The notes: generated by a model not told the origin, from the sequence alone. DNA of 64,000 bases from Pseudoalteromonas luteoviolacea (GCF_001750165.1 NZ_CP015412.1:1143588-1207587); one strand, 5' to 3'; shown: positions 16,361 through 41,368, numbered from the stretch's first letter. Numbers and translations are program-made.

Positions 16361-16495
16361 GCATCCTCTGTCCAAAACAGAAAGTTAAAAACGACATTTG
16401 ATGAGTATTTAACAATAAAAGGCTGCAATACCGAATAGTTGTATTATATTTTTAGACATGTGTATAGCGGGTATGGATAGTACCGGAAGGTTGAT

Positions 16496-18331: not shown

Positions 18332-18460
18332 TTCCATTGCCTTTTGACGTTGGGCTCATGTCCAAAAATACTTCAGCAGTTCAGCGATGCACTGGGAATG
18401 ATCTTGTCCTTTGTCAATTAGGTGATGAAGCGGCAACAACAGTACCGCTACATCGTTGAG

Positions 18461-26220: not shown

Positions 26221-26390
26221 TTAAGGGCTAGCTCAGCTTTTATCAACCCATCTCTAAGCAGTGGGTTTTTTGCATCACTTGAGAATGGTGACAAATTAAA
26301 CTTGATACTCGTGTAATACTTTGTAATAGTTGAGCTACAAGGACTTTTATATAGTTATTAATGTTGAATAACTTACAATAAAGACGTGCT

Positions 26391-26630
26391 ATGGATCAGA
26401 AATTTATAGAACAAATTAAGTATGAAGAGCGTGATTCTCAATCATGTGAATATGCTGAGTCAAATAAGCACTATATTAATGCCACATTGCTTCTGGATGA
26501 AAGCAACGCCTCAGATGAAGATAGAATTAAACTGTTGACACAGCTAAACTTGTACCGTCACTCTGCATCGATTGAAATAGAGGAAGTTGCAGATGGTGTA
26601 TTTAATATGCGCTTTGCCTTATTAAATTAA
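26391..26630 (+). CDS. hypothetical small protein
   Basis: 79-aa ORF, acidic. No motif. Confidence 0.3.
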   Translation: MDQKFIEQIKYEERDSQSCEYAESNKHYINATLLLDESNASDEDRIKLLTQLNLYRHSASIEIEEVADGVFNMRFALLN

Positions 26631-26863
26631 GTCGTACAGCAAGGCCTTGATTGTGTTTTATTGATTCTAGCCTCCCATTTCTTCACTTATAAACGAACGC
26701 TAACCTATAATGTAAATTTAATGTTTACATTATAGGTATTTAGCTTTAGATTAATATCTAAACAAAAAATAATAAAATGCATATCTGTTATGGATAAATT
26801 TCATTGCGACTTAATTTATACGCCGATTGATTAATTCGGCGTCGATGTTGTGGTGGAAGCTAG

Positions 26864-27646
26864 TTGCGGAGTTTAATAGCCTCAATAAAGAGGGGAGTCG
26901 TTATAATGCAGGATGGTCAATACAGTATTTCTTATAATAATCAGATAACTACTTCTCAAGATGATTGCAACAATGTTGTGGAAAGTAGCTATATTATCAG
27001 TGTTAAATCTTCTGAAAATGGTAGTTTGAACGTGTCGTTTATGCAAGGGTTTGACAGTTTCTTAGCTGCTTGCATTTGTCATGAAAATAATCGTGTTGGC
27101 ACTGAAATAAGTAAAGAAGATATATTCGATTTTATTATTTTTAATGACCCAGATTATGGTATGTATTTATCACAAGAAAGCATGCCTGATAATCGCCTAA
27201 TAATGGCATTAGACCGTGTTGCAGCATACGGAGAGCACACTTCGGAAGAGGTTTTTCAATTGCTTCAAACGCAGATGATTCGAGATATTTCAATCATCGC
27301 TTTAAAAGAATTAGACGAAATAAAGAACAACGCACAAATGACCCCGGTGGTAGGACAAAATAAAACAAGATTAGCTAAAAGTGAGCAAGGCGAAGCAGGG
27401 TGTAAGCTTTCAATATTAGAATTAAAGAAAATAATAGGAGAGCAACCTAAAGGAGATTATGAAGCACTGTTGAGCGATGCTTGGGAAGCCGTGCACAATC
27501 AAAAGTGCTATCAAAACACTGGCATACAGTATGTATGTTATGAGTTGGATAAGAGTGATTCCCTGGCTTATCATGAGTCCGTTTATCACTCATATACTCT
27601 CAAACAACATAAGCATATTATCAGAAGAATTGTCCGTATCGATTAA
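26864..27646 (+). CDS. hypothetical protein
   Basis: 260-aa ORF. No recognisable motif. Confidence 0.4.
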   Translation: MRSLIASIKRGVVIMQDGQYSISYNNQITTSQDDCNNVVESSYIISVKSSENGSLNVSFMQGFDSFLAACICHENNRVGTEISKEDIFDFIIFNDPDYGMYLSQESMPDNRLIMALDRVAAYGEHTSEEVFQLLQTQMIRDISIIALKELDEIKNNAQMTPVVGQNKTRLAKSEQGEAGCKLSILELKKIIGEQPKGDYEALLSDAWEAVHNQKCYQNTGIQYVCYELDKSDSLAYHESVYHSYTLKQHKHIIRRIVRID

Positions 27647-27732
27647 TCAAGGATGTTCACTATAAAAGTTACTGTTTCCGATTTTTATATCCTTTACAAT
27701 TGAACATAGTGTTCATTTAAAGGAATTTAAAT

Positions 27733-28317
27733 ATGTGGTTATCCAGCGGTACACTTGAAGGCAAGCTCGTCGTCTTGGAGCCTTTGTCAGTTACCCACTG
27801 TGATCTGTTAAAAGAGGCCGTAAGTGACGGTCAAAGTTGGCAACTTTGGTATGCAACTGTGCCTACTCCAGAGGGGATGCAAGCCTATGTTCAAAAAGCG
27901 CTTGAAGCTATGGAAAGTGGGGAAATGGCTTATGTTGTAAAAACCAAACATGACGGAAGAGTGGTTGGAACTACTCGTTTTTATGACGTAAAAGAAAAGC
28001 ACCGCCGAGCATCAATAGGCTACACCTGGTATTCAGACTCGGTGAAAAGAACCGGAGTAAATACTGAAAGCAAATACTTACTTATGTCTCACCTTTTTGA
28101 CACTAAAGGCGCGTTGTCTTTGGAGTTTAAAACGCATTTCTTTAATCAAACTTCTCGGGTGGCAATTGAAAAGCTAGGCGCAAAGTTGGATGGTGTGTTA
28201 CGAAGCCACCAAGTCATGCCTGACGGTTCAATTAGAGATACTGCTATCTATTCAATTTTGTCTCACGAATGGCCTGCGGTAAAAAATAATTTAAAAGCCA
28301 GATTACGAAGTAATTAA
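27733..28317 (+). CDS. GNAT family N-acetyltransferase (RimJ/RimL-like)
   Basis: 194 aa. GNAT fold motifs. Resembles ribosomal-protein-alanine acetyltransferase-like enzymes. Confidence 0.75.
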   Translation: MWLSSGTLEGKLVVLEPLSVTHCDLLKEAVSDGQSWQLWYATVPTPEGMQAYVQKALEAMESGEMAYVVKTKHDGRVVGTTRFYDVKEKHRRASIGYTWYSDSVKRTGVNTESKYLLMSHLFDTKGALSLEFKTHFFNQTSRVAIEKLGAKLDGVLRSHQVMPDGSIRDTAIYSILSHEWPAVKNNLKARLRSN

Positions 28318-28476
28318 TATTGTGTTGTCGGAGTGATGAGGACATTAACTCGTTACTCCAAAACGATCTACACCTCCAACTAACACACATCAATCTTAAA
28401 ATCATAAAGCCTGCTTATAATCGTTGTTGTACTCCATAACATGTTGTTATTCATATGAATATATTAATTTTACCTC

Positions 28477-28515
28477 GTTATAAATTGCTGTTATAAATTG
28501 CTGTTATAAATAGCG
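28477..28515. promoter_or_regulatory. three tandem 13-bp direct repeats GTTATAAAT(TGCT), each containing a -10-like TATAAAT
   Basis: gttataaattgct gttataaattgct gttataaatagcg read directly, 179 bp upstream of the first gene of the PspA-flotillin cluster. Confidence 0.4.
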
Positions 28516-28589
28516 GTGGTTAACTATGGCTCTTTGAGCTTTTGGCTTGAAGCGAGATAAGTAAACTTGCGTTTTTTTCAAAAATGTTA

Positions 28590-28609
28590 TTGACATATTA
28601 TGTCATGAC
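28590..28609 (+). promoter_or_regulatory. perfect -35 hexamer TTGACA followed by 8-bp palindrome GTCATGAC (candidate promoter/operator)
   Basis: TTGACA at 28590-28595. Palindrome gtcatgac at 28602-28609. About 85 bp upstream of the 28694 start codon. Confidence 0.3.
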
Positions 28610-28693
28610 GTGCAAATCTAAAGTCGTTAACTCATACAAACAGTTCGGCTTTTACTTACGGAAAAAGCCAATTAGATATAAGGAATCTGTTAT

Positions 28694-29104
28694 ATGGAAT
28701 TAAATGAGCTTTCCCTCAAACTCTCTCAGTATGAAACTGAAGGGGCCAGTTTTGAGTCCTTTTTTATCAACAATGTTGGACAAGAAGTTCTACAAGTTAT
28801 TGTTGATGGAAATGATGAACTTCCAATTTTTGTTACCCGAACAGAAGAGCAAATCTTGTGTATTTGTTATTTGTTCTCAGAGCAAGAAATAACTGCACAA
28901 AAGCAAGCTGAATTAAACGATACATTATTGCGCTTAAACGTACCTATGCCGTTGAGTGCATTTGCTAAGATTGACAATAAATACGCAATTTTTGGTGCGC
29001 TTTCTACAAATTCAACACTTGAGCAGCTTGGTCATGAGATTGTCACTTTATCTGCCAACTCGATAGATGCGTTAGATGCAATTAGTGATTATTTGACTGA
29101 ATAA
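28694..29104 (+). CDS. DUF2170 protein, YjfI-like
   Basis: 136 aa. Alignable by eye to E. coli YjfI (IFVTRTEEQILCICYLF / YAIFGALSTNSTLEQLGHEIVTLSANSIDALDAISDYL versus the YjfI segments recalled from memory). Confidence 0.65.
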   Translation: MELNELSLKLSQYETEGASFESFFINNVGQEVLQVIVDGNDELPIFVTRTEEQILCICYLFSEQEITAQKQAELNDTLLRLNVPMPLSAFAKIDNKYAIFGALSTNSTLEQLGHEIVTLSANSIDALDAISDYLTE

Positions 29105-29119
29105 TAAGGAGTATTAATC

Positions 29120-29812
29120 ATGAGTATTTTAAAGAAGTTATTTACTGCGGTTAAAGGTGGTGTGAATGAAGTGGGTGAAGGCATTGTTGACGCCAATGCA
29201 ATTCGTATTTTTGAGCAAGAAATTAGAGATGCCCAAGCCGCATTGAATGATGCCAAGCGCAGCCTAACAGAAGTGATGGCTAAGGAAATACAGACTACAC
29301 GCGCTATCAAAAGTCTCGATGAAGATATCGTTCAGCACGAAACTTATGCTGCGCAGGCACTTGATAAAGATGAAGAAACTTTGGCGCTTGAAATCGCTAG
29401 TAAAATAGCCGAGTTTGAGCAGGAAAAAGCAGAGCAGCAGCAAGTGCTCAATACGTTTGCGACTAATGTGAGCAAGCTTAAAGAGCAAATTAAGCAAGCT
29501 GAAAAAACCATTGTTGAGAATCAACGCCAACTAAGCATGGTTAAAACCACTGAAAGCGTACAAAAAGCAACCATGGCTGTGAATGATACTATGGCATCGG
29601 GTGACTCTGCGATGACATCTGCGAAACAGTCACTTGAGCGTATTAAACAGCGGCAAATGGACAGGCAAGATCAACTAGATGCAGCACAGCAATTAGCTGA
29701 TGAAAATAGTGATAAATCACTTAATGATAAAATGCGCGCAGCTGGTATCGGTGAAGAAGCAACAAAGGGCGCAGATGTATTGGCTCGGATCCGAGCAAAA
29801 CAAAATAAGTAA
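29120..29812 (+). CDS. PspA/IM30/Vipp1 family protein (YjfJ-like)
   Basis: 230 aa, all-helical coiled coil. N-terminus MSILKKLFTAVKGGVNEVGEGIVDANAIRIFEQEIRDAQAALNDAKRSL matches the PspA/IM30 family start. 16 bp after the yjfI-like gene. Confidence 0.85.
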   Translation: MSILKKLFTAVKGGVNEVGEGIVDANAIRIFEQEIRDAQAALNDAKRSLTEVMAKEIQTTRAIKSLDEDIVQHETYAAQALDKDEETLALEIASKIAEFEQEKAEQQQVLNTFATNVSKLKEQIKQAEKTIVENQRQLSMVKTTESVQKATMAVNDTMASGDSAMTSAKQSLERIKQRQMDRQDQLDAAQQLADENSDKSLNDKMRAAGIGEEATKGADVLARIRAKQNK

Positions 29813-29817
29813 CACGG

Positions 29818-30138
29818 ATGAGTGAAAATAAAAAAACTTGGCAAAAGCAAGAAAAGGCAGTTAGAGCTACACAGCTTGCTTTTGACTTAAGCTCCGAAGT
29901 GCAAAAATTTATTAAGAAAAACGCAATTGATGAGGAGCTCACCCCATCGGATATGATCCGACGGATCCTAGGATTAGAAATAAAATCAAAAAAAACGCGC
30001 CAAAGGCTTAGTTTTAATTTAAGCGATGAGGAAATTGGGCTGCTGGCGGAGCGTTTTGACATTGCTGATGGAGATAAGCGTATGGTAAAGCAAAAGGTTG
30101 CTGATTTGCTTATCCAGCATGTCAAAAACAGTAAGTAG
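29818..30138 (+). CDS. hypothetical small protein, possibly tandem ribbon-helix-helix-like
   Basis: 106 aa, starts 6 bp after the PspA stop. Segments KKTRQRLSFNLSDEEIGLLAERF resemble RHH beta-strand/helix starts. Weak call. Confidence 0.35.
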   Translation: MSENKKTWQKQEKAVRATQLAFDLSSEVQKFIKKNAIDEELTPSDMIRRILGLEIKSKKTRQRLSFNLSDEEIGLLAERFDIADGDKRMVKQKVADLLIQHVKNSK

Positions 30139-30199
30139 CGCTTTTAAAAAGAGTACATGTGGTTTGAATAGCCCCTAACTCATAGGAACACAAAAGATT

Positions 30200-30808
30200 A
30201 TGGACTTTCTCAATACTATTTTTACTTTTCCCACCGTGGTGTTTACCACTTTATTGCTTATCGTCATTATTTTTTGGCTGATTGCGCTGTTAGGTTTTGC
30301 TGATATCGATATGCTAGAAGGCGACGTTGAGCTTGAAGTTGAGGGGGGCAGCGATTCTTTCTTGCAAATGGGATTTGGTGGCGTACCGCTGACTATTTCA
30401 ATTAGTTTAGTGGTGCTGATCAGTTGGGTTGCAAGCTTTTACGCACATCAACTATTTGCTTATGCTTTAGGCGATGGGGTGATGTTTTATTTACTTGGCA
30501 GTTTGATGATGCTTGGCTGTTTTGTAGCTTCCATTCCTTTAACCGCTTTATTAGTTAAACCTTTGAGACGCTTTTTTGATAGTAAGGAAGCGGCGTCTAA
30601 AAACGACTTTATTGGTCTTGAATGTGTGATTGCAACAAGCAAAGTTAACAGCCAATTTGGCCAAGCAAAAGTCCAGTTTCAAGGTACAGAACAATTGATA
30701 GAAGTCAGAGCCGATGAAGAGGGGTTGTTTGGACTTGGCGATGTCGCGCTACTAATTGAACACGATATTCATAAAAACAGTTACTTAGTTGTTGAAAAGC
30801 CTTGGTAA
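30200..30808 (+). CDS. YqiJ/NfeD-like inner membrane protein (DUF1449, C-terminal OB-fold)
   Basis: 202 aa. Multiple TM helices then a soluble C-terminal beta domain (GQAKVQFQGTEQLIEVRADEEGLFGLGDVALLIEHD). Same layout as E. coli YqiJ, the partner of flotillin YqiK. Confidence 0.65.
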   Translation: MDFLNTIFTFPTVVFTTLLLIVIIFWLIALLGFADIDMLEGDVELEVEGGSDSFLQMGFGGVPLTISISLVVLISWVASFYAHQLFAYALGDGVMFYLLGSLMMLGCFVASIPLTALLVKPLRRFFDSKEAASKNDFIGLECVIATSKVNSQFGQAKVQFQGTEQLIEVRADEEGLFGLGDVALLIEHDIHKNSYLVVEKPW

Positions 30809-30950
30809 TAATAACGAATTAAGTCATCAATAATATTTAATCAACTTCTCCAATTTCTATCATGGTGATTGGGGAAAATATCCCATGGCAGCTCTACGTG
30901 AAAACAAACATAGCCATGGTTTGGAATAATTAAAACATTTAGGAATACAC

Positions 30951-33050
30951 ATGGAATTTTTAGATAATCTCGGACCAATTTTAACAATCGTTGGCGTGGT
31001 CATCGCCGTTATTTTTGCGATTATTTTAATCGTGGGGAAGTTTTATCGAAAAGTGGATCAAGGGCATGCGCTCATTATTAACAAAATGAAAAATGAGCCA
31101 GATGTCACAACTACGGGGGGCATTGTTTACCCTGTTATTCATAAAATGGAGGTGATGGATATCTCAACCAAACGCATGGTATTGGAGCGCAGAGAGAACA
31201 GCGGCTTGATCTGTAAAGATAACATCCGTGCAGATATTGCAATTACCTTTTATATTCGCGTTAATGAAAACAAGCAGGACATTTTACGTGTTGCCAAGCA
31301 AGTTGGCTGTGCACGCGCTTCTCAACCTGAGACTCTACAAGAGCTGTTTGAAGCTAAGTTTTCCGAAGCACTGAAAACAGTGGGTAAGCAAATGAACTTT
31401 GAGGAGTTGTTTACCCATCGTAACCAGTTTAGAGATGCGATTAAAGAGGTGATTGGTCAGGATCTATCTGGTTATACATTGGAAGATGTTGCGATTGATT
31501 ATCTAGAGCAAACCTCCATTCACAAACTTGATGAAAACAACATTTTGGATTCTGAAGGGATCCGTCGCATTACCGAAAAAACAGCGGAACAAAACGTTCA
31601 AACCAATCAACTGAAGTGTGATGAGCAAGCGCAAATTGAGATCCAAAACCAAGCGGCGTTAGAGAAGTCGTTGGAAATCGAGCGTCAAAAAGAAGATGCT
31701 AAAGCAAAGCAGCAGCGCGAGATTGAAACGGTCCGTGCAAGGGAGACGGCTGAAGCGGAACGTGTAAAGCAAGAAGAACGTTTGAAGTCAGAAGATGCAC
31801 GCTTAAAAGCAGATGAAGCAATTGAGATTGCCGAGCAAAACAAACAGCGTGAAATTGACATTGCTGAACAAAATCGCCTTCGTGTACTGGCCATTGAAGA
31901 AGAAAAAGTGGCGCGTTCTCGTGAAATCGAAGTTATTGAGCGTGAGAAAGAAACGGAAATCATGCGCATTAACAAAGAAAAAGCGCTTGAAGTGGAGCGT
32001 AAAGAAATTGCTGAAGTGTTACGTGACAGAGTAGCCGTTGAGAAAACGGTTGCAGAAGAACAAGAGCGTATTAAAGATGTGCAAACATTGGCAGCTGCAG
32101 AGCGGGAAAAAGAAGCAATTGTGATTAAAGCCAAAGCAGAAGCAGAAGAAGCACTGGTGAAAGATATTGAAGCAGCTAAAGCGCAAGAGCAAGCGTCAGA
32201 GTTCAAGGCGAGAGAGCTTGAAAAAATGGCTGAAGCTGAGCTGCGTATCGCAAATCAAACGGCTGAGTCGAAAAAAGTGTTGGCGGAAGCAGAGCGCGCA
32301 GAAAAAGCGGCAGCTGGTTTAGCTGAAGCCGAAGTTACTAAAGCGAAAGCAGAAGCAAACGCGCAGCAAGGTGAAACGGAAGCACAAGTATTGCAACAAA
32401 AACTGGCGGCAGAAGCACAAGGTAAACGTGACATCGGTTTTGCAGATGCTGAAGTGCAATCGGCAATGGCTGAGGCAATTGAGAAACAAGGTGAAGCGGA
32501 AGCTCAGACACTTGAACGTCGTATGTCAGCAGAAGCAAAAGGCCTTGAAGAGAAGCTACAAGCGTTAAATGCGATGGATCAGTCGGCGCGCGATTATGAA
32601 AGCTTTACGTTGCAGCTTAACCAGCAAAAAGAGTTAATGCTTGCTAAATTAGAAGCTGAAAAAGACATTGCAGCGCATCAATCTGAAGTGCTTAGTAAAA
32701 CACTGGGTAGTGCAGACATCAACATCATGGGTGGTGATGGTCAGTTCTTTAATCAGTTTATGAAGGCTATCACACTCGGTAAGTCAATTGATGGCTTAGT
32801 GGGTGAGAGTGATACAGTACAAACCTTATTTAAAGATCATTTAAATGGGGAAAGAAATATCATGGATGACCTAAAAGGTGTTTTAAGTGGTGCGAATGCG
32901 TCATCAGAGACGATGAAAAATGTGGCAATGAGTAAGTTTTTTAGTCAGTTAGGAAATAGCAGCGATGCTGAAAAGCAGCAGCTTTTAGCGCTACTTGGTA
33001 GTACGCTAAACGGCAATTCGAAGCAAGTTGAGTCAAACGAGCAGAGCTAA
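30951..33050 (+). CDS. flotillin family protein (SPFH/band-7 domain; YqiK/FloT-like)
   Basis: 699 aa. N-terminal TM anchor. SPFH domain (residues ~40-250). Very long E/A/K-rich coiled-coil flotillin region. C-terminal tail. Confidence 0.85.
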   Translation: MEFLDNLGPILTIVGVVIAVIFAIILIVGKFYRKVDQGHALIINKMKNEPDVTTTGGIVYPVIHKMEVMDISTKRMVLERRENSGLICKDNIRADIAITFYIRVNENKQDILRVAKQVGCARASQPETLQELFEAKFSEALKTVGKQMNFEELFTHRNQFRDAIKEVIGQDLSGYTLEDVAIDYLEQTSIHKLDENNILDSEGIRRITEKTAEQNVQTNQLKCDEQAQIEIQNQAALEKSLEIERQKEDAKAKQQREIETVRARETAEAERVKQEERLKSEDARLKADEAIEIAEQNKQREIDIAEQNRLRVLAIEEEKVARSREIEVIEREKETEIMRINKEKALEVERKEIAEVLRDRVAVEKTVAEEQERIKDVQTLAAAEREKEAIVIKAKAEAEEALVKDIEAAKAQEQASEFKARELEKMAEAELRIANQTAESKKVLAEAERAEKAAAGLAEAEVTKAKAEANAQQGETEAQVLQQKLAAEAQGKRDIGFADAEVQSAMAEAIEKQGEAEAQTLERRMSAEAKGLEEKLQALNAMDQSARDYESFTLQLNQQKELMLAKLEAEKDIAAHQSEVLSKTLGSADINIMGGDGQFFNQFMKAITLGKSIDGLVGESDTVQTLFKDHLNGERNIMDDLKGVLSGANASSETMKNVAMSKFFSQLGNSSDAEKQQLLALLGSTLNGNSKQVESNEQS

Positions 33051-33071
33051 GCATCGTTTGAAATGATGAAC

Positions 33072-33095
33072 AGAGCATGCGTTCTAGCATGCTCT
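33072..33095 (+). other. intra-operon RNA hairpin (9-bp stem agagcatgc/gcatgctct, 6-nt loop) between flotillin and giant ATPase genes
   Basis: Perfect inverted repeat read directly in the 87-bp gap, with no strong T-tract. Candidate attenuator or processing site. Confidence 0.35.
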
Positions 33096-33137
33096 CACCT
33101 TTCTAATTACCCTCCTTGTACAACAGGACAGTAGACT

Positions 33138-36100
33138 ATGACGGACTCTGCAAATAATGCCGCACTAGAACAGGGCTCTTATGATTTAATCAAGCGCCGT
33201 TTGAGTAACTCGGGTGCCCAATTGCGCACAGACATTGATTTACTCAACCAAAACCGTATAGATACCTTTGGCAGCACTGAAATCAAAGTAAAAGGGCGTG
33301 CTAGAGTAAGAACAGAACACAATTGTATACCACGAGATATCGTGCTCATTGGTGATAAACTCATCTTTGCTTACAACGTATTTTTAGGATTGAAAAAGAA
33401 TACTCAAGTAGGTGATGTGTTCAGTGTTCAAAAGCTAGTTCAGCAAGATGATCACTATGAGGTAGAAGCATATCCAAGTGAAACAAAGTTTCTCACAGAC
33501 AATCGATTTTTGAGAGATTTTGACGAGTTATATACCTATTACAAAGAAACCCGCTTACAGCATTTATTTCAGCAAAATGGCAAGCTTTACGCGCTATTTC
33601 AAATCGGTGACAAGCTCACCGATGTACGAGTCTTTCGTTGGGAGATAGCAGCAGATAACACCCTTGATTACATAGATAATCGCGGCGAACGGGATTTAAA
33701 TACGGGTCAGGACTATGACTTTGAATGGATAAAAACCGATAGAAGTAATCATGTAGAAGGTCGTCATCCGCATATTAATATTCTTGATACCGTGTTTGTT
33801 GAGACGGTTGGTGGCGATCTAACCATTAAAATCGAGAATAATACTGAAAGTGGTGAAGGGATCTATGCGGAGCCAGTTGAAGATAAAAACCAATCCCTCG
33901 CTGATTGTGATGTAGATTATGCGAAGCTTGGCGAAATCATCTTACTTAAAGTGCTACCTTATCGCGAAAAGGTTTGGCGCTATTATATTTTCAATTGTGT
34001 GACCGAAAAGGTCATCCGCCAAGATGCTATTTCAGATGCATGTGTACAACTTCCTGATGACCACGGCATAATTTTCCCAGGTGGTTACTATTTACAATCA
34101 GGGCAGACTCGTTCGTTTGAAGACCACATTGAAAACTTAGAATTTCATAAGCAGATAAAATCTCCTAATGGTGAGGATGTTTTATATGTTTTTTATGAGC
34201 CAAGCGAAGGGCGCTACGCATTATTTGCCTATAATCTGATCGAGAAAAACCTTCAAAACCCAATCTATTGTCATGGTTATGGTGTCTATGAAGATGGTTT
34301 AACCATCACCTTCAAGGCTGAAAAGGAAGAAGCTGAGCGCGTTCATCCAATTCAGATCTGGGATAGCCCATTTTGCTCTGTTGAGTTTGCTGCCAATGCG
34401 CCTACACCAAGCAGTATGCTGGGTAAGATTGGGAATCCAGATTTGGTGCGAGGTATTTCAGATCTATACAGTGTTTGCAAGGCTATCAGTGAGCAAAATC
34501 CCAATGTGTCTCACTATGAAAGTTTGATCTCGTTAACACGCAGTATCTTAGACAGATATCACTGGCTAACAGAGCCTGACTTTACACCTCTCAATACTCA
34601 ATTACATGAGATATTTGAAACCTCTGAGCAGGTTTTGGATGAGTTTGAGAAAGTCAGCCAAATACAAGAGACAGCCAAAAAAGCACTGGCTGATATTGAG
34701 CAAGAATATAAGGCGACCACTAAGGATATTCGCCCTGATAGCTTTAAACTGGCCACTGAATTTGTCACAGGCCTTGAAGCGCTTAAGCTGCTTAAAGGCA
34801 AAATTATTAGCTTGGAAGAGGTAAAATATATAGATGTTACCGCTTTGCAAGCGCTGCAAATACGCCTTGATGAGCTGACTTTAGAGTTGAGTAAAGCGAC
34901 GGCGCAATTTTTACAAAAAGAGGCTGCTTTAGCGCCTTATCATGACAAACTCGGTGAGCTCACCGGCTTGAGCGAGAAAAGTGAGAGTGTCACTGAGCTC
35001 AATGGATTTTTAGATGCGTTAGATACTCTGGGCGATGAGCTTGATTTACTCAATCATACCATGCTTGATTTAGAAATCGATGATAGTCGTGTTAGAACAC
35101 AGATCCTAGAGGATGTCAGTGGTGTTTATGGCTTGGTTAATCGAGCCAAAGCCAGTATTGAGATCCGCCGAAAAAGTCTTGGTAGTGTAGAGGCAAAAGC
35201 GGAATTTGCAGCGCGTTTTAAACTGTTTAGTCAAAGTATTACCAGCAGTTTGAACAACGCGCGTACGCCGGAGCAATGTGATGAGCAGCTCTCTCGCTTG
35301 TTAATTCAATTAGAAGAGCTGGAGTCTCAGTTTAGTGAATATGACGAGTATCTTGCTGAGATCATGGCCAAGCGCGATGATGTCTATGAAAGCTTTGAAG
35401 CACATAAGCAGCAGCTGATAGATGAAAGGCAGCGCAGAGCACTAAACTTAGCCAATGCCGCTGAGCGTATTTTGCAAGGGGTAACTAGACGCTCACAAAA
35501 CTTCACTGATATTGATGAAATAAACAGCTATTTTGCTTCTGATCCTATGATCAGCAAGTTACGCAGTTTGACGCAAGAGCTTAAAGATCTGGGTGATGAG
35601 ATTAAAGCGGATGATATTCAAGCTAAGCTAAAAGCGTCTAAAGATCAAGGGATCCGCTCTCTACGTGATAAGCAAGATATATACAGTGATGGTGGTAACT
35701 CGGTCAAAATTGGCAAGCACAATTTTGGAGTCAATAAGCAGCAACTAGACTTGACTTTATTGCCTCGTGATGAAGATTTGATGTTTCATCTTACTGGTAC
35801 TGAGTATTTTGAGCCTATAGGGGATAAGCGTATTCGCGAAACTTTGCTGGCTTATCGCCCATATTGGCAGCAGAACTTAGTCTCTGAAAATAACGACATA
35901 TATCGTGGTGAGTTTCTAGCCGCGCAAGTGCTGACAGCGGCGACAGATCCGACTCACGCACTGACGCTTGATGGGTTAAATGCTGCGATAGCTGATGATT
36001 CACTGCTCACGTTAGTGCAGAAATTTGCAGAGCCTAGATATCAAGAGGGTTATGAAAAGGGCATTCATGACCATGATGCAACCTTGATCTTGCAAAACTT

Positions 36101-39100
36101 GCTGGCACAAAAACAGGCGTTAGGATTATTGATATACCCTACATCAGCGCGTGTGGTAGCGCAGCTGTATGCAAGTCAATGTGATGACAAGCAATTAATC
36201 AAGTGGCGCGAGCAGTCTAAGCAGGCTGAGTTGATGGAGACCTTGTTAGGTGATGCGCGATTTAAAGTGCAGCTAGCCACTGAACTTGGCGAGGTGATCA
36301 CACAGTTTGCACAAACTGATCTAAACCGTTACCTGGGTTACACATCGGCCTTATCTGGACAGTTAAGTGCTGAATATTTAATCAAAGAGTTGGCGCACAG
36401 CAAAAAAGACCTTGTTTTTTCGACCTCCCATACGGTTAAAAAATTAGCCGAGCAATTTAACAGTGTTGCCAGAAGTAAAGGGTTTGCAGGTTCACTGCAA
36501 GATACGTTGCAGGCATTGGAACATATGCAAGATCAAGCCATTATGGCAACTAGCTGGCTTAACGCATATGGACAACAGCATGATACAGAAGTCAGTAGCG
36601 ATGATTTGATCGAGGCGGCTAATATGGTGCTATTACAGCATCTAAAAACGGCTAAGTTCAACGCGCAAGATGTGGCCGTCACTAATCAAGTTAATGGGCT
36701 GTTAGGTCAACATATTCGTATTGATGAGCAAGTATTAACGCTTGATTACTCGGAGTTTTTTGCGCGTACAGAGCTGTATTTGGCTGAACATGTACGTGGG
36801 TTTAGTCACTATCATGAAATTAAGTCTGATATTTTGGTAGAGCAAAAGGAGCGTTTACAGCTCGATGAATTCAAGCCAAGGCCATTGAGTTCATTTGTCC
36901 GTAACCAATTGATTGATAAAGTTTACTTCCCAATCATTGGTGACAACCTTGCGAAGCAAATTGGTGCGTCAGGTAATAACAAGCGTACCGATTTAATGGG
37001 GATGTTGTTACTTATTTCTCCACCGGGTTACGGTAAAACGACGCTGATTGAATATGTTGCCAATCGACTTGGTTTAACGTTTGTAAAAGTGAATTGCCCA
37101 TCAATAGGCCATGATCAGGTTTCACTCGACCCAGGCCAAGCGATCAATGCAACGGCCGCAAAAGAGATTGAAAAAATTAATCAGAGCTTTGAAATGGGCA
37201 ATAACGTCATGCTCTATTTGGATGATATTCAGCATACCAACCCTGAATTCTTACAAAAATTCATTTCACTTTGTGACGGCTCTAGGCGTATTGATGGCGT
37301 ATGGAATGGTCGCAGTAAAACCTATGACCTACGTGGTAAAAAGTTTGCAGTTGTGATGGCGGGTAATCCTTACACTGAATCTGGCGAGAGCTTTAAAATT
37401 CCAGATATGTTGGCTAACCGTGCCGATATCTACAATTTAGGTGACACTTTATCGGGTTGTGAGCAAGAGTTTGCAATGAGCTTCATTGAAAATGCACTCA
37501 CCTCAAACGCAGTGCTTGCGCCACTTGCCAACCGTAACATGCAGGATTTGTATAAATTAGTGCGTATTTCTGAAGGCGAAGACATCTCTCTAAACGAGCT
37601 GGAGCATAACTATTCGCAGGCGCAAGCAAATGAAATTGTATCTGTGTTACAAAAGCTTATTCAGATAAGAAATACCGTATTGAAGGTGAATGCCCAGTAT
37701 ATTGCCTCCGCAGCGCAAGACGATGATTATCGTATTGAGCCACCGTTTAAGCTGCAGGGCAGTTATCGAAACATGAATAAGATGGCTGAAAAAGTGGTGG
37801 CGGCAATGAATGATGAGGAATTAGAAAACCTTATTCAAGATCATTACCGCGGTGAGGCGCAAACGCTCAGCAAAGGCAGTGAGGAGAACCTCCTTAAACT
37901 CGCTGAGCTACGTGGTACGTTGGACGAGCAGGCAAGAGCACGTTGGCAGCAGATTTTAGATGATTACGCGCTACTTAACCGAGCCAATGATGCAGGCAGT
38001 CCAATACTACTTGCTGTCGAGCAACTTGGTGAACTGAATGAGTCACTCACCAGTATTGCAACAAAGTTGGATAAAGAGCAATTAAGCCATAATTACTCAG
38101 CCTTGTTTGAATCTCTGAATCAAGTGGTCAGTGCGCAAGACGCCAATGACAGCATACAGTCGGTAGCAAAAGTGATTGAACAAACTGCGCAGCAGTCGTC
38201 GCTTACGGCATCATTTGAGCAGCTTATAGGGCTTTTGGCTGAGCAGCATCAGCAAAGGCAGACACACAGTGAACATTTAGCGCATCAAGGCGTGAATACG
38301 ACTGAGACGCTGGTGGACAAGGTGAATGAAACATTGGCACAACTTACTGGCGCTTTAAATACTCAGTCAGAGCGTTATTCAGAGCAAGCACAGCTCGATG
38401 CGCAAAGAGCGGATAATAGACTTGCTTCACAGCAAGCTTTAACAGCGGCATTGTCTGAGCAGTTACAACAAGTCTCGGGTGCAATTGAGAGTCAGCGCGA
38501 CAGTCAGATTAGTAGTGCAGAGCAAAGTGCTTTAAAACATAGTGAAGGCATGGCAAGGCACGGCGCAGAACTTGCGAAGTTAGCTGATGAATTAACAAAA
38601 TTGCGAAGTACATTGAGTGCTCAAAACACGCTCAAAGAATCGCAGGTAGAGCAATCTAAAGGGCATCAGCAGGCTTTAGTAGAGTGTGTTTCCAGCAAAT
38701 TGGAGCATATGGCTAAGGTGTTGGAGGCGCAAAACTCAGTTGCACATCACTCGCGTCAGTCCGAGCTGTTAGCGCAACAAAGTGAAGCGTTAAAGGTGAT
38801 GGCTAAAAAGACTGATATCGGTGACGCTTTATCTGGGCTCAGCCGCGACTTTTTAAAAAGCCAAGATGTGCTAGGTCTCAAGTTAAAAGAGGTACTTGAG
38901 TCTAGTCAGCACCAAACGGCAGAACAACTTTCAAGTGTTTCAGGAGAGTTGCAAGAGCATCATGATGAACTGACTACACAGGTACAAGTGCATAGCTCTG
39001 TGTTGGAGCAACTAGTTGCTCAGCTGCGAGAGCAGGTGGCGAGTGCACAGCAAGCGACACCGAGTGATGAAGTGGCACTTGCATTGAGTGAGTTGGTCAA

Positions 39101-39266
39101 CACTGCGTTACCTTCGCTGGTGCAACAGGCAGAGCAATCAAGCACCCTAGACCCTGAGATTGGTCGCAAAGTGGATGTGATTTTAGAGCGCCTAGCACGT
39201 ATTGAGCGACAGCCTGCACCGAGTCAAGGTTCAAGTCAAAATAGCGATAACCCTTATATGCTTTAG
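33138..39266 (+). CDS. giant (2042 aa) coiled-coil protein with a single embedded MoxR/AAA_5-type AAA+ ATPase module
   Basis: Walker A ISPPGYGKTT (nt 37017-37043). Walker B LYLDDIQH (nt 37212-37235). MoxR/AAA_5-like sensor segment VVMAGNPYTESGESFKIPDMLANRADIYNL. Beta-rich N-terminal ~420 aa. About 850 aa of helical/coiled-coil region before the ATPase. Q/A/L/S-rich low-complexity coiled coil over the last ~500 aa. Confidence 0.7.
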   Translation: MTDSANNAALEQGSYDLIKRRLSNSGAQLRTDIDLLNQNRIDTFGSTEIKVKGRARVRTEHNCIPRDIVLIGDKLIFAYNVFLGLKKNTQVGDVFSVQKLVQQDDHYEVEAYPSETKFLTDNRFLRDFDELYTYYKETRLQHLFQQNGKLYALFQIGDKLTDVRVFRWEIAADNTLDYIDNRGERDLNTGQDYDFEWIKTDRSNHVEGRHPHINILDTVFVETVGGDLTIKIENNTESGEGIYAEPVEDKNQSLADCDVDYAKLGEIILLKVLPYREKVWRYYIFNCVTEKVIRQDAISDACVQLPDDHGIIFPGGYYLQSGQTRSFEDHIENLEFHKQIKSPNGEDVLYVFYEPSEGRYALFAYNLIEKNLQNPIYCHGYGVYEDGLTITFKAEKEEAERVHPIQIWDSPFCSVEFAANAPTPSSMLGKIGNPDLVRGISDLYSVCKAISEQNPNVSHYESLISLTRSILDRYHWLTEPDFTPLNTQLHEIFETSEQVLDEFEKVSQIQETAKKALADIEQEYKATTKDIRPDSFKLATEFVTGLEALKLLKGKIISLEEVKYIDVTALQALQIRLDELTLELSKATAQFLQKEAALAPYHDKLGELTGLSEKSESVTELNGFLDALDTLGDELDLLNHTMLDLEIDDSRVRTQILEDVSGVYGLVNRAKASIEIRRKSLGSVEAKAEFAARFKLFSQSITSSLNNARTPEQCDEQLSRLLIQLEELESQFSEYDEYLAEIMAKRDDVYESFEAHKQQLIDERQRRALNLANAAERILQGVTRRSQNFTDIDEINSYFASDPMISKLRSLTQELKDLGDEIKADDIQAKLKASKDQGIRSLRDKQDIYSDGGNSVKIGKHNFGVNKQQLDLTLLPRDEDLMFHLTGTEYFEPIGDKRIRETLLAYRPYWQQNLVSENNDIYRGEFLAAQVLTAATDPTHALTLDGLNAAIADDSLLTLVQKFAEPRYQEGYEKGIHDHDATLILQNLLAQKQALGLLIYPTSARVVAQLYASQCDDKQLIKWREQSKQAELMETLLGDARFKVQLATELGEVITQFAQTDLNRYLGYTSALSGQLSAEYLIKELAHSKKDLVFSTSHTVKKLAEQFNSVARSKGFAGSLQDTLQALEHMQDQAIMATSWLNAYGQQHDTEVSSDDLIEAANMVLLQHLKTAKFNAQDVAVTNQVNGLLGQHIRIDEQVLTLDYSEFFARTELYLAEHVRGFSHYHEIKSDILVEQKERLQLDEFKPRPLSSFVRNQLIDKVYFPIIGDNLAKQIGASGNNKRTDLMGMLLLISPPGYGKTTLIEYVANRLGLTFVKVNCPSIGHDQVSLDPGQAINATAAKEIEKINQSFEMGNNVMLYLDDIQHTNPEFLQKFISLCDGSRRIDGVWNGRSKTYDLRGKKFAVVMAGNPYTESGESFKIPDMLANRADIYNLGDTLSGCEQEFAMSFIENALTSNAVLAPLANRNMQDLYKLVRISEGEDISLNELEHNYSQAQANEIVSVLQKLIQIRNTVLKVNAQYIASAAQDDDYRIEPPFKLQGSYRNMNKMAEKVVAAMNDEELENLIQDHYRGEAQTLSKGSEENLLKLAELRGTLDEQARARWQQILDDYALLNRANDAGSPILLAVEQLGELNESLTSIATKLDKEQLSHNYSALFESLNQVVSAQDANDSIQSVAKVIEQTAQQSSLTASFEQLIGLLAEQHQQRQTHSEHLAHQGVNTTETLVDKVNETLAQLTGALNTQSERYSEQAQLDAQRADNRLASQQALTAALSEQLQQVSGAIESQRDSQISSAEQSALKHSEGMARHGAELAKLADELTKLRSTLSAQNTLKESQVEQSKGHQQALVECVSSKLEHMAKVLEAQNSVAHHSRQSELLAQQSEALKVMAKKTDIGDALSGLSRDFLKSQDVLGLKLKEVLESSQHQTAEQLSSVSGELQEHHDELTTQVQVHSSVLEQLVAQLREQVASAQQATPSDEVALALSELVNTALPSLVQQAEQSSTLDPEIGRKVDVILERLARIERQPAPSQGSSQNSDNPYML

Positions 39267-39279
39267 CATATGAACAATG

Positions 39280-39319
39280 AAAAAGTCGATGAGCTATGCC
39301 GTCGGCTTTTTCTATTTTA
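39280..39319 (+). terminator. rho-independent terminator after the giant gene
   Basis: aaaaagucga ... ucggcuuuuu forms a 10-bp stem (one G-U) around a 12-nt loop, followed by tttttctatttt. 14 bp after the stop codon. Confidence 0.45.
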
Positions 39320-39345
39320 AACCATCACTAAATGCATCGTAGAAT

Positions 39346-39573
39346 ATGAGTAATATGGTAACTATACGACCTTTCTTTAGGTTACTTGCAGGTGTTACAG
39401 CACTGCTACTTTGGGGGTTTTCGTTTTTTGAATTATTGGGGATAATAGGTACAAACTCTACAGAGTTACTTAATTGGTTTCATTGTATTAGTAGTTTTGG
39501 CGTCGCGCTTGGTTTTTCTTATATTGCGGTCTCAGGGCGTTTACTAAGAGTCCTTTTTGATGTTTTTTTTTAG
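39346..39573 (+). CDS. small two-TM membrane protein, hypothetical
   Basis: 75 aa. Two hydrophobic helices. Sits after the terminator, so it is probably its own transcript. Confidence 0.35.
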   Translation: MSNMVTIRPFFRLLAGVTALLLWGFSFFELLGIIGTNSTELLNWFHCISSFGVALGFSYIAVSGRLLRVLFDVFF

Positions 39574-39870
39574 GTAGTTAGTTATCTTACATAGCCACTT
39601 TTTCAGTGCGTCTAAAGAGCATTTAGTATCCATACACCTATTGGAGAATAGTCTTTAACTTAATTTTTTGTATTGTTTTTATTTGCTTTTTTATTCGGGA
39701 AATGGGTAAAAAAGAGAATAATGTATAAGTTTTGATTAAAAGGAGATAGGGATATCATGACGCTTAGAGTAAGAGTGCCGATTTTATCATCAAACAATGA
39801 ACAGGCCCACATTAGTAACGTGTTCGTAGAAGCAATAAATAGCCATGGCTTTATTTTTATCTTAGCCATA

Positions 39871-40839
39871 TTATTTGGCCTGAAACCACCTAACTATATT
39901 ATTTAGCGTTCTTTGGAAAAAGTTCATCGGCTTAATGATAAAGCTATCGAATATCAGCTCAGTGGGTGATTCATTTGCTTTTAATACGCTATTGAGAGCG
40001 TGAAGTTTCTCTACACTTAAATCCAGCGATGCCTCATTGGGCTGGTACGTTGAGCCAATAGGGTAATATTGTTTTGGTACATTTTTCATTTCTATATGGG
40101 CACCTAGTATAGCGCTCACAGCGTTATCTTTTGCGAATTGACTCAGCTTATTGATGCTGTATTTGTATGCGTTCCAGTCTTTTACATAGATATATCCGGG
40201 GTAAAGTGTGTCGCCTGTTAATAGCCATTTATTTTGCGGATCATAAATACTTAGACTTTCTTCTTGGTGACCTGGTGTGGGCAGAATTGTTAAGGTTCGT
40301 CCACCAAGGTCGATTAGCGCCTGTTCATCAGGCCATCTTTTAAATTTAAAGTAGGCTTGTAACGCGGCCTTTGAAGGTCGGATAAGTGTGGTATTTGGTT
40401 GGCTGTCGAAAGCCCAATCACCTTGGTAGTGATCACTGTGTCCATGCGAGTGTATGATCAGCAGTTCTTTTTTTGAGAGCTGCTTTTTACCTAACAACTT
40501 CTCCAATGTTTGATACAAATTATACGAAGTGCGCTCTCCCAAAGCGCCCATGTCTAAAATCAAAATAGCTTGCTGGCCAACCAAGACATATATAAAAGGC
40601 GCTTCATATGTTAAGCATTTGCTTTGTCTAATAATATAAGTGCTTGCATCATGATGATAAATATCATGGGCAGTCGCTTGTGATGCCTCACAATTTTGAG
40701 CTCCGTGGTGCCATTTAAGTTTTGCGAGTGCGGTGTTTGGCGGGGATACCTCGTTCATTGAGTGCGTGTTTATGGTGTGTTTTGTGTGAATTGAACAACC
40801 ACTTAGAAGTAAAAGCAATAATGAAATACACGCTTTCAT
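39871..40839 (-). CDS. MBL-fold metallo-hydrolase lipoprotein
   Basis: 322 aa. Lipobox LLSGCS. HxHxDH zinc motif (HSHGHSDH). Confidence 0.75.
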   Translation of the reverse strand: MKACISLLLLLLSGCSIHTKHTINTHSMNEVSPPNTALAKLKWHHGAQNCEASQATAHDIYHHDASTYIIRQSKCLTYEAPFIYVLVGQQAILILDMGALGERTSYNLYQTLEKLLGKKQLSKKELLIIHSHGHSDHYQGDWAFDSQPNTTLIRPSKAALQAYFKFKRWPDEQALIDLGGRTLTILPTPGHQEESLSIYDPQNKWLLTGDTLYPGYIYVKDWNAYKYSINKLSQFAKDNAVSAILGAHIEMKNVPKQYYPIGSTYQPNEASLDLSVEKLHALNSVLKANESPTELIFDSFIIKPMNFFQRTLNNIVRWFQAK

Positions 40840-40870
40840 GTCGCCACCCTTGATATAGTTCGATTTTGGT

Positions 40871-41368
40871 TTACCGCTGCTTATTTAACATTTCGAAGCG
40901 TTGGATAAGCGGCGTTTCGATGAGTACTTTTTCAGCTTCTCGCACTTTTTGCAGCAAATCACATTCGATTTGTTGAATGAGATCTGTGAATACCTCTGTC
41001 ATTTTCGACGTCAAAGGTTTTAACTGCATCACTTCTTGTTTACCAAGGTCGGTTAAATGCAGTGTTTTTGCGCGCTTGTCCTTTGGGTTAGGTTTTCGGC
41101 AAACTAAGTTGAGCTTGATCAGAATATGTATTCTTTGTGTTGCCATCTGATGTGTGACACAAAGCGCTGCGGCTAACTCAGCAACGGTGACGCCATTATT
41201 TTGCTCAAGATAATACATGCTTGATATAGCTGTGCTTGGGGCTGTGATGCCATAACGTTGAAGCACTGTCGTGCCTTGTTCACTGATCAAATCAGACAAA
41301 CGACGACAAAAGTGGGCAAGAAATGCTTGGTCTAAAGTGTTTAGGTATTCGCTCATGGTGCATCGCAT
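40871..41368 (-). CDS. MarR family transcriptional regulator
   Basis: 165 aa. Winged-helix MarR core (LTDLGKQ wing). Divergent from the DoxX-like gene. Confidence 0.8.
   Translation of the reverse strand: MRCTMSEYLNTLDQAFLAHFCRRLSDLISEQGTTVLQRYGITAPSTAISSMYYLEQNNGVTVAELAAALCVTHQMATQRIHILIKLNLVCRKPNPKDKRAKTLHLTDLGKQEVMQLKPLTSKMTEVFTDLIQQIECDLLQKVREAEKVLIETPLIQRFEMLNKQR

Follow-up and report, generated by a model that had tools for sequence, protein, structure and literature searches.

An operon class that combines a CesT/Tir-like DUF2170 protein with PspA, a YqiJ/NfeD protein, flotillin and a DUF3686 AAA+ ATPase was described in 2024, along with abbreviated flotillin-YqiJ(-ATPase) operons that lack PspA and are more widespread (Ravi et al. 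2024, mSystems; PMC11237479). In Pseudomonas aeruginosa, PA3732-PA3729 were named bac ('biofilm-associated cluster') in 2008; hyperosmotic stress induces the PspA-like PA3731, whose mutant is defective in biofilm formation, swarming, rhamnolipid production and virulence (PMC2587700). The bac operon was extended in 2024 to six genes, bacABCDEF, with a reverse transcription PCR (RT-PCR) product across every junction; in a bacA mutant all downstream products were up 6- to 13-fold, a negative effect of BacA on the amounts of the other Bac proteins was described, and the study reported a crystal structure of BacA and proposed a sigma-54 promoter (PMC10948618). A 2026 paper assigned PA14_16160 as a short NfeD protein and PA14_16180 as the SPFH protein PaFlo3, and PA3728, listed as an 'ATPase', is a repeated target of mutation in isolates from cystic fibrosis. 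Here, we compare these systems with a cluster of six genes in a 64,000-nucleotide (nt) stretch of DNA from Pseudoalteromonas luteoviolacea (hereafter, the window), to which coordinates refer unless a locus is named. The six open reading frames (ORFs) are called O1 to O6 in their order, and stretches from related genomes that were compared with the window are labelled L001 and so on.

As reported in a preliminary description of this DNA, the cluster comprises six co-oriented ORFs, each found at its coordinates on the + strand with an ATG start, and is followed by a terminator hairpin:

28694-29104, + strand: O1, DUF2170/YjfI/BacA-family protein (CesT/Tir-like chaperone fold), 136 aa, cytoplasmic (Pfam, PDB 8q8o, YjfI)
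29120-29812, + strand: O2, PspA/IM30 protein (YjfJ/BacB type), 230 aa, membrane-binding polymer of the ESCRT-III superfamily (Pfam, YjfJ)
29818-30138, + strand: O3, 106 aa, probable tandem ribbon-helix-helix regulator, putative autorepressor (internal repeat, sub-threshold matches)
30200-30808, + strand: O4, YqiJ/YuaF-type 'short NfeD' inner-membrane protein, 202 aa (hhalign, transmembrane prediction)
30951-33050, + strand: O5, flotillin (YqiK/BacD/PaFlo3 type), 699 aa (Band_7, YqiK)
33138-39266, + strand: O6, AAA+ protein, 2042 aa, cytoplasmic, PA3728 homologue (Pfam, alignment)
39279-39312, + strand: intrinsic terminator (13-pair stem, 8-nt loop, T-run)

The spacing is short, as had been noted, with true intergenic lengths of 15, 5, 61, 142 and 87 nt; the values given before (16, 6, 62, 143 and 88) were coordinate differences, each one too high. 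Five of the six starts have a purine-rich ribosome-binding site.

Domain content and relation to published systems

The domain labels assigned in the preliminary description hold for five of the six proteins, the 106-aa ORF, a probable regulator, having been missed. O1 matches Pfam DUF2170 (E = 7e-36) as well as PDB 8q8o, a 'DUF2170 family protein' that is the only solved DUF2170 structure (E = 1.8e-9), and is 30% identical to Escherichia coli YjfI. Its score against the NCBIfam BacA model NF050185 is 59.7 bits, under the 300-bit equivalog cut-off, which makes it a member of the BacA family (same Pfam family) and not an equivalog. O2 matches Pfam PspA_IM30 (E = 9e-41) and E. coli YjfJ (33% identity, E = 2e-33), and weakly the Synechocystis sll0617 protein (PDB entry 7o3w). 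As in the published class, the DUF2170 gene stands first and the PspA-family gene follows directly, after 15 nt. For O4, no Pfam match was obtained even at permissive thresholds or across 36 homologues; the 36-sequence profile aligned to E. coli YqiJ with an hhalign probability of 90% (E = 1.6e-6), and three transmembrane (TM)-like windows (residues 13-31, 62-86 and 101-119) are followed by a soluble C-terminal part. The earlier label 'YqiJ/NfeD-like' stands because of this profile match and TM layout. O5 matches Band_7 (E = 2e-7; 31.6 bits versus a gathering cut-off of 23.6) and E. coli YqiK (29% identity over 455 aa, E = 2e-42), and shows one TM-like window at residues 10-28, a predicted N-terminal anchor, followed by the SPFH domain and a long E/A/K-rich helical region. 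These matches place the YqiJ-type and flotillin members of the class side by side in the window, and O4 and O5 are the only proteins of the six with predicted TM segments. A membrane location also fits the accessory genes of other lineages, which encode a rhomboid-like protease and an HKD/PLD-like hydrolase.

The cluster had initially been said to match no named system. This is incorrect: five of its six proteins match the group 1 CesT/Tir-PspA operons of Ravi et al., whose PspA-less versions correspond to 43 loci in our comparison, and the order of homologues is the same as in bacABCDEF (PA3732-PA3727 or PA14_16140-16200), namely BacA, BacB, BacC, BacD/PaFlo3 and the PA3728 ATPase. Two Pseudomonas/Aquipseudomonas loci, L007 and L008, carry the order DUF2170-PspA-YqiJ-flotillin-(79-aa ORF)-giant ATPase, and their first gene product scores 345 and 348 bits against the 300-bit cut-off of the equivalog 'biofilm formation regulator BacA'. 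The window differs from bac in its sequence (30-50% identity), in lacking a sigma-54 site and in having a ribbon-helix-helix (RHH) gene between the PspA and YqiJ genes, whereas the Pseudomonas-group loci, unlike the window, have a 79-aa TerB-like gene before the ATPase gene and rhomboid-like and HKD/PLD-like genes after it. A 2022 eLife paper on the Arc pathway proved irrelevant, PA3729 appearing only as background in a pull-down table.

Comparison with E. coli confirmed a further point of the preliminary description, namely that strain K-12 keeps yjfI-yjfJ and yqiJ-yqiK apart (at 4.41 Mb versus 3.19 Mb). O1 and O2 resemble YjfI and YjfJ, and O4 and O5 resemble YqiJ and YqiK, but in E. coli K-12 the two pairs are separated by 1.2 Mb, no DUF3686 ATPase lies beside yqiJK, and yjfIJ is joined to polyamine-related genes (yjfIJ(KLMC)). 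In the window the two E. coli-type modules are indeed contiguous and extended by the giant AAA+ protein. The classical Psp regulon, with its sigma-54 promoter and PspB/PspC, is likewise distinct: no sigma-54 site (TGGCAC-N5-TTGC) with two or fewer mismatches exists in 28318-28693, so that a sigma-54 promoter as in P. aeruginosa was rejected for the window, and the six proteins and the eight neighbouring ORFs scanned gave no match to a PspB, PspC or PspF domain.

In our judgement, the cluster is probably the P. luteoviolacea-group version of a widespread, published envelope-maintenance operon, which would act as a single RHH-controlled unit through ATPase-driven work on membrane scaffolds. The membrane-stress or remodelling role suggested in the preliminary description is also the published inference for the operon class. 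The class itself is already published, with P. aeruginosa mutant phenotypes, and is not a discovery; new here are the prediction of an RHH-operator pair and its regulon, the counts that separate a core from an add-on, the fusion history in this lineage and the flagging of 'DNA repair' as a misnomer for the ATPase.

An invariant core and a proteobacterial add-on

For the synteny comparison, one genome per species was scanned, at least 587 relatives of the ATPase were confirmed and 80 loci were returned, from Gamma-, Beta- and Zetaproteobacteria, Myxococcota, Actinobacteria, a Clostridia metagenome-assembled genome (MAG) and a Thermoanaerobaculia MAG. The counts below refer to 82 loci in which ORFs were called and assigned with iterated profiles of the six window proteins. 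O4, O5 and O6 occur together in 75 of these, the other seven being mostly short or cut contigs; 74 of the 75 have the three genes on one strand in this order, and in L028 the calls for O4 and O5 overlap. Proteobacteria, Myxococcota, Actinobacteria and Clostridia all contribute such triads, and in every complete locus the neighbours of the ATPase gene are the genes for flotillin and the YqiJ-type membrane protein. The pair O1-O2 precedes the triad in 31 loci, all from Gamma- or Betaproteobacteria, while the triad stands without a nearby PspA gene in 43 of the 82, and O3 is present in 10. The invariant functional unit is YqiJ-flotillin-ATPase, with PspA and its chaperone as a proteobacterial add-on. 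As regards mechanism, the obligate partners of the ATPase are the SPFH/NfeD pair and not PspA.

Two outcomes had been named in advance as speaking against an integrated machine, namely adjacency in this one lineage only and the giant gene in unrelated contexts elsewhere. Each turned out to be partly the case. The six-gene order of Pseudoalteromonas is lineage-specific, but the same juxtaposition recurs in the 31 loci; and the giant gene is always accompanied by YqiJ and flotillin genes, even though PspA is missing from the neighbourhood in the 43 loci mentioned above.

The order recurs with short gaps across several phyla (medians of 9 nt for O1-O2, 5 for O2-O3, 30 for O3-O4, 37 for O4-O5 and 90 for O5-O6). 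This recurrence, together with the short spacers and single strong terminator of the window and the RT-PCR data from P. aeruginosa, makes the single operon proposed earlier likely, and O1-O6 most likely form one transcription unit from a predicted promoter at 28590 to the terminator at 39312. The terminator has a fold energy of -18.4 kcal/mol (z = -5.2 versus shuffled controls). The 87-nt O5-O6 spacer also folds strongly (-25.1 kcal/mol, z = -3.9). It contains two stem-loops without a T-run, within 33052-33095, the second being:

33072-33095, + strand: hairpin AGAGCATGC-N6-GCATGCTCT in the O5-O6 spacer, no T-run (fold energy)

This second stem is kept in L001, and L003 has a different pair of complementary arms instead. 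Its retention despite changes in both arms suggests control of relative expression, and the hairpin may act on RNA stability or attenuation and so set the flotillin:ATPase stoichiometry. No Rfam family was found on either strand of 27500-40500.

The giant DUF3686 ATPase

O6 begins with DUF3686 (residues 29-475, E = 1.5e-193 in Pfam), continues with a helical middle region that includes DUF7902 at 597-680, and carries a single AAA+ module at about 1277-1440, where both AAA (35.8 bits) and AAA_5 (33.6 bits) score above their cut-offs. The N-terminus of the class ATPase has been published as a 'beta-propeller' fold. Walker A (SPPGYGKT) and Walker B (LDDIQH) are invariant in an alignment of 23 sequences reaching down to 31% identity. 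The conserved helical region ends at about 1620, followed by an L/S/Q/A-rich tail (1620-2042) whose length varies among homologues, and prediction over the whole protein gave no TM-like segment. An ATPase with DUF3686, AAA and AAA_5 is thus encoded here as in the published class, and the same gene adjacency holds in 78 of the 82 loci. The family is large, with at least 6,400 matches at E < 1e-10 and at least 902 clusters at 50% identity (E < 1e-10), and has no solved structure.

The module had been described as 'MoxR/AAA_5-type'. Its AAA_5 part is borne out by the above-cut-off match, while the MoxR class is only weakly favoured. Searches of the PDB with the single sequence and with a 23-sequence profile gave matches confined to the P-loop. 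An AlphaFold2 (AF2) model of residues 1170-1650, built from a shallow alignment (pLDDT 62), had as its best Foldseek matches the MoxR-class proteins NorQ and CbbQ (E ~1e-4, TM-scores ~0.2), with Lon, RuvB, MCM and dynein close behind; among the Pfam matches to the six proteins and eight flanking ORFs, no VWA-domain family was found. A 'MoxR-type' AAA+ module is therefore plausible from the model.

Homologues of O6 are named 'DNA repair ATPase' in NCBI and UniRef, the Pfam text for DUF3686 reads 'ATPase involved in DNA repair', and there are weak P-loop matches to RuvB. That the giant protein is a DNA repair ATPase unrelated to membranes is nevertheless extremely improbable: the RuvB match is confined to ~35-50 residues at Walker A, domain searches of the protein gave neither a DNA-binding nor a nuclease domain, its gene neighbours in every complete locus are those for flotillin and the YqiJ-type protein, and no paper in the literature library searched mentions DUF3686. 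One JGI entry names an O6 homologue 'biotin-(acetyl-CoA carboxylase) ligase'. Neither name is backed by sequence or gene context, and correcting the 'DNA repair' label and naming the partners of this large family would be useful for its annotation.

Giant NTPases are also a frequent feature of defence systems, PspA-family proteins were originally discovered through phage shock, and a response to phage or pore-forming damage had been among the roles proposed in the preliminary description. An anti-phage or abortive-infection system built around the ATPase is nonetheless very unlikely. In a search with PADLOC-DB 2.0, PspA matched the SMC-like JetC and LmuB models with low scores and through coiled coils, and the other five proteins matched nothing, so that defence-system models were rejected for want of any match beyond coiled-coil noise. 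Domain searches turned up neither a nuclease nor another effector, the family is spread widely and stably and keeps the same membrane partners, and the cluster, which lies among ordinary chromosomal genes, is syntenic between species.

A probable ribbon-helix-helix regulator and its candidate operator

O3, encoded between the PspA and YqiJ genes, is a probable tandem RHH regulator, as judged from its sequence. Within it a strand-helix-helix unit is duplicated, as QLAFDLSSEVQKFIKK...TPSDMIRRIL and then RLSFNLSDEEIGLLAERF...VKQKVADLLI, in which QLAFDLSSE and RLSFNLSDE correspond. A direct search gave 165 homologues, which with few exceptions come from Pseudoalteromonas or genera close to it, and iterated profiles also found O3, with full-length alignment, in loci of Thiodiazotropha, Massilia, Ideonella, Aquabacterium, Marinobacter and Methylomonas. 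RHH-type Pfam models (RHH_1, RHH_9, RHH_10, NikA-like) gave sub-threshold matches in 5 of 14 homologues, the best being RHH_1 (E = 7.6e-4; 19.8 bits versus a 20.5 cut-off), and some UniRef homologues are named 'Ribbon-helix-helix CopG'. The window protein itself matched no Pfam model at gathering score, nor at permissive thresholds. Its AF2 model, from a shallow alignment (pLDDT 67), shows two helix-helix units, and the best Foldseek matches, all with non-significant E-values, include the single-chain two-RHH proteins AvtR (top; probability 0.84, E = 0.32) and single-chain Arc.

This assignment is in line with published work in which an RHH transcription factor is the last gene of polyamine-type (group 2) DUF2170-PspA operons (PMC11237479). 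In L084 and L085, from other Pseudoalteromonas, the O3 homologue sits at exactly that position, in a separate polyamine-type operon. Ravi et al. report the RHH factor only there and describe no operator, whereas in the window and in the Thiodiazotropha, Massilia, Ideonella, Aquabacterium and Marinobacter loci the RHH gene accompanies the flotillin-type operon. In the Methylomonas locus L015 it lies 3' of the ATPase gene, not of the PspA gene.

The region upstream of O1 contains the following elements:

28477-28515, + strand: three tandem 13-nt direct repeats GTTATAAATTGCT, perfect or near-perfect copies, specific to this genome
28590-28595, + strand: perfect -35 hexamer TTGACA
28592-28604, + strand: overlapping palindrome GACATATTATGTC, candidate O3 operator
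28611-28619, + strand: possible extended -10, TGcAAATCT, 18 nt past the -35 box, a weak fit to the consensus

The 13-nt repeats account for the 'repeat-rich promoter' of the preliminary description, but their conservation does not extend to the two closest genomes (one copy aligns in L001, none in L003), so that they may have expanded locally and recently, or may form a binding array specific to the strain; as a control element of the operon they were rejected. Alignment of the upstream DNA of the window with that of L001 and L003 shows a different block to be conserved, TTGACATAWTATGTC, in which the 13-bp palindrome GACATNNNATGTC overlaps the TTGACA -35 box. The block of the possible -10 recurs, as TGCAAaTCT / TGCGAATCT, after the operator in L001, L084 and L085.

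Occurrences of this palindrome were counted in 1.96 Mb of sequence that includes the window. The exact palindrome GACATANTATGTC occurs 10 times (0.12 expected). With at most one mismatch there are 17 sites, all of them ~310 bp or less upstream of O1 or O4, where chance predicts 0.08 in the corresponding upstream windows; most directly follow TT, which completes a perfect TTGACA -35 box. Such a site is present in 11 of 12 sources that carry O3 (the window included) versus 1 of 73 without it (Fisher p = 6.7e-12). Several sources have multiple sites (two each in L084 and L085, three in L047), and the Marinobacter locus L069 has two in its divergent O1|O4 spacer. The lone O3-less source with a site is L004, the stand-alone triad of P. 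ardens, where the TTGACA-palindrome promoter faces O4; the giant proteins most like that of L004 come from P. rubra, a species that carries an O3 homologue. In the operator region of L015 (5765-5795), we also observed a larger composite palindrome, CCCATAATATGTC-TTGACATGTTATGGG.

From these distributions we infer that O3 is an autorepressor that binds GACAT-N3-ATGTC and joins the PspA and flotillin/ATPase modules in a single regulon, also where the two are not linked. The P. ardens triad, with the same promoter-operator as the PspA module, points to such co-regulation of unlinked modules. The predicted regulator-operator pair would offer a handle on the system, in that the operon should be derepressed by deletion of the 106-aa gene, and the same operator would connect PspA and flotillin modules where they lie apart.

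If O3 were instead a small adaptor made of helices, such as an MIT-like protein that binds PspA at its C-terminus, the palindrome would be bound by another factor. In favour of this reading, the model of O3 has only helices and no called beta-ribbon, and no Pfam RHH model reaches gathering score. The profile of O3 homologues also matches the Vps4 MIT domain, which is curious beside a PspA of ESCRT-III type, but the match is non-significant (E = 0.16) and most probably chance. We regard this alternative as improbable, given the RHH-type matches in the homologues, the AvtR and Arc matches of the model, a two-fold internal repeat with the hydrophobic-polar strand pattern expected of RHH proteins, the independent naming of an RHH factor in the polyamine-type operon (PMC11237479) and the tight link between the O3 gene and the palindrome.

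Origin of the six-gene order

A P. luteoviolacea protein matches the O3 of the window at 100% identity, and a P. umbrosa protein matches O6 at 93%. Identity to other relatives differs along the cluster. O1-O3 are 64-72% identical to the products of DUF2170-PspA-RHH genes in polyamine-type operons of other Pseudoalteromonas, but only 30-48% identical to their counterparts in the six-gene loci of other genera. For O4 and O5 the nearest relatives lie in the stand-alone triads L004 and L005; identity to the P. ardens triad (L004) is 64% and 87%, respectively. Given this pattern, the best reading of the luteoviolacea/umbrosa order is that two modules, already present and already co-regulated, were fused locally and converged on an arrangement that exists independently elsewhere.

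The same identities, and the 43 loci with a triad but no PspA nearby, could also be taken to mean that a DUF2170-PspA-RHH Psp-like unit and a YqiJ-flotillin-ATPase microdomain system are independent and became adjacent by chance in a recent rearrangement. We consider this unlikely. That 31 loci, from numerous Gamma- and Betaproteobacterial genera, share the juxtaposition, with a constant order and little space between the genes, argues for selection on the coupling; in P. aeruginosa the cluster is transcribed as one unit and all its products are up in the bacA mutant; and the stand-alone P. ardens triad shares the promoter-operator of the PspA module.

Proposed mechanism

Returning to the reading of the cluster as one RHH-controlled envelope-maintenance operon, we propose the following sequence of events. 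The core consists of the three-TM YqiJ/NfeD-type protein and flotillin, anchored on the cytoplasmic face of the inner membrane, together with the ATPase; in Gamma- and Betaproteobacteria, the DUF2170 chaperone-like protein and the PspA/ESCRT-III-type polymer are often added, encoded before the core. Transcription would start from a sigma-70-type promoter with its -35 TTGACA at 28590 and end at 39279-39312, and the RHH protein, by binding GACATATTATGTC over the -35 box, would repress its own operon until a membrane signal arrives. By analogy with HflK/C-FtsH and ESCRT-III-Vps4, flotillin-YqiJ assemblies might then mark or enclose membrane patches and recruit the soluble ATPase, PspA, restrained by the DUF2170 chaperone, might polymerise on damaged membrane, and the AAA+ ATPase could use ATP to assemble, remodel or recycle these scaffolds, including, where present, PspA polymers freed from the DUF2170 chaperone. 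Gene content, homologies, synteny, predicted membrane topology and the association of operator and regulator are shown by the sequence comparisons, whereas the protein contacts, the substrate of the ATPase and the inducing signal are inferred.

Scaffolds that work with an AAA+ partner are familiar from HflK/C-FtsH, in which the scaffold is of the SPFH family, and from ESCRT-III and Vps4, in which it is a polymer. In the cluster, an SPFH scaffold and an ESCRT-III-family polymer are likewise genetically coupled to an AAA+ ATPase, which suggests ATP-driven remodelling of membrane scaffolds. Unlike FtsH and Vps4, O6 has neither a protease nor an MIT domain, is soluble and ~2,000 aa long, and carries its single AAA+ module late in the chain; as far as the model goes, it may be structurally nearer to the MoxR class than to classical Vps4 or FtsH. 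A stronger version, in which the YqiJ-flotillin-DUF3686 triad (with PspA and DUF2170 in loci that have them) would be a complete bacterial membrane-remodelling pathway, the giant AAA+ protein a Vps4- or FtsH-like motor for the assembly or recycling of SPFH cages and PspA polymers, and the RHH protein the wiring of both modules into one regulon at GACATNNNATGTC operators, also across separate loci, is speculative, and we hold it to be rather doubtful. PspA/ESCRT-III polymers and SPFH cages are active topics, and the operon is a natural candidate for what energises their turnover.

Several points weigh against the proposed mechanism. Deletion of paFlo3 in P. aeruginosa caused a marginal biofilm phenotype only. 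Direct action of the ATPase on PspA, argued by analogy, is the weakest step, as the triad so often stands without PspA nearby. The Walker B motif of O6 reads DD and not the usual DE, and its poor model (pLDDT 62, TM-score ~0.2) fixes neither the AAA+ clade nor substrate threading. On the regulatory side, the case for O3 as an RHH protein is built on matches below threshold and on a model of medium confidence that has no called beta-strand, a consensus sigma-70 scan did not call the proposed promoter with its weak -10, and the lack of a sigma-54 site implies that regulation differs from that proposed for P. aeruginosa.

Flanking genes and lineage-specific insertions

The cluster lies among ordinary chromosomal genes. 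On its upstream side (24913-28317) are genes for an M43-like metallopeptidase and a GNAT acetyltransferase, and downstream, on the opposite strand (39871-41368), genes for a metallo-beta-lactamase-fold protein and a MarR regulator. Directly 3' of the terminator, the window has a 75-aa hydrophobic ORF with a weak DUF6796 match (39346-39573), whereas the P. umbrosa-like L001 has two genes with Biotin_lipoyl domains in the same place (16390-18448), so that the downstream junction varies among close relatives. A few kb further downstream in L001 (21390-26129) are a TauD gene and a nonribosomal peptide synthetase cluster.

Additional ORFs were observed between the flotillin and ATPase genes in some lineages. 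An ORF of 79-86 aa occurs there in three Pseudomonas-group loci and a Lysobacter MAG (L007 9610-9849, L008 9596-9838, L020 9561-9821 and L060 9628-9867), with a near-threshold TerB match (E = 6e-5; 23.8 versus 24.4 bits) and weaker EF-hand matches. ORFs with a Zn_ribbon_TFIIB domain are found in the same interval in Betaproteobacteria and one Pseudomonas MAG (L047 9384-9917, L059 9370-9918, L064 8448-9014 and L060 9188-9559); in the Thalassomonas locus L002 such an ORF is divergent, on the - strand upstream of the flotillin gene (6269-6820). The Zn_ribbon_TFIIB protein may be a lineage-specific accessory or regulator. By eye, we also noted that the flotillin-ATPase junction is split by foreign insertions (L033 7629-9962 and L037 8015-9915), which in Lampropedia include a 512-aa ORF and a nucleotidyltransferase/HEPN toxin-antitoxin-like pair, and in a Zetaproteobacteria MAG two near-identical ORFs of ~306-311 aa.

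Further genes lie 3' of the ATPase gene in the Pseudomonas group, as identified by eye and clustering. L007 (15220-19193) and L008 (15211-16452) encode a rhomboid-like membrane protein (GASGW) and an HKD/PLD-like protein (HxKx4D...GSxN), and L007 in addition has a 914-aa P-loop protein (GPPGTGKS) of helicase-like appearance.

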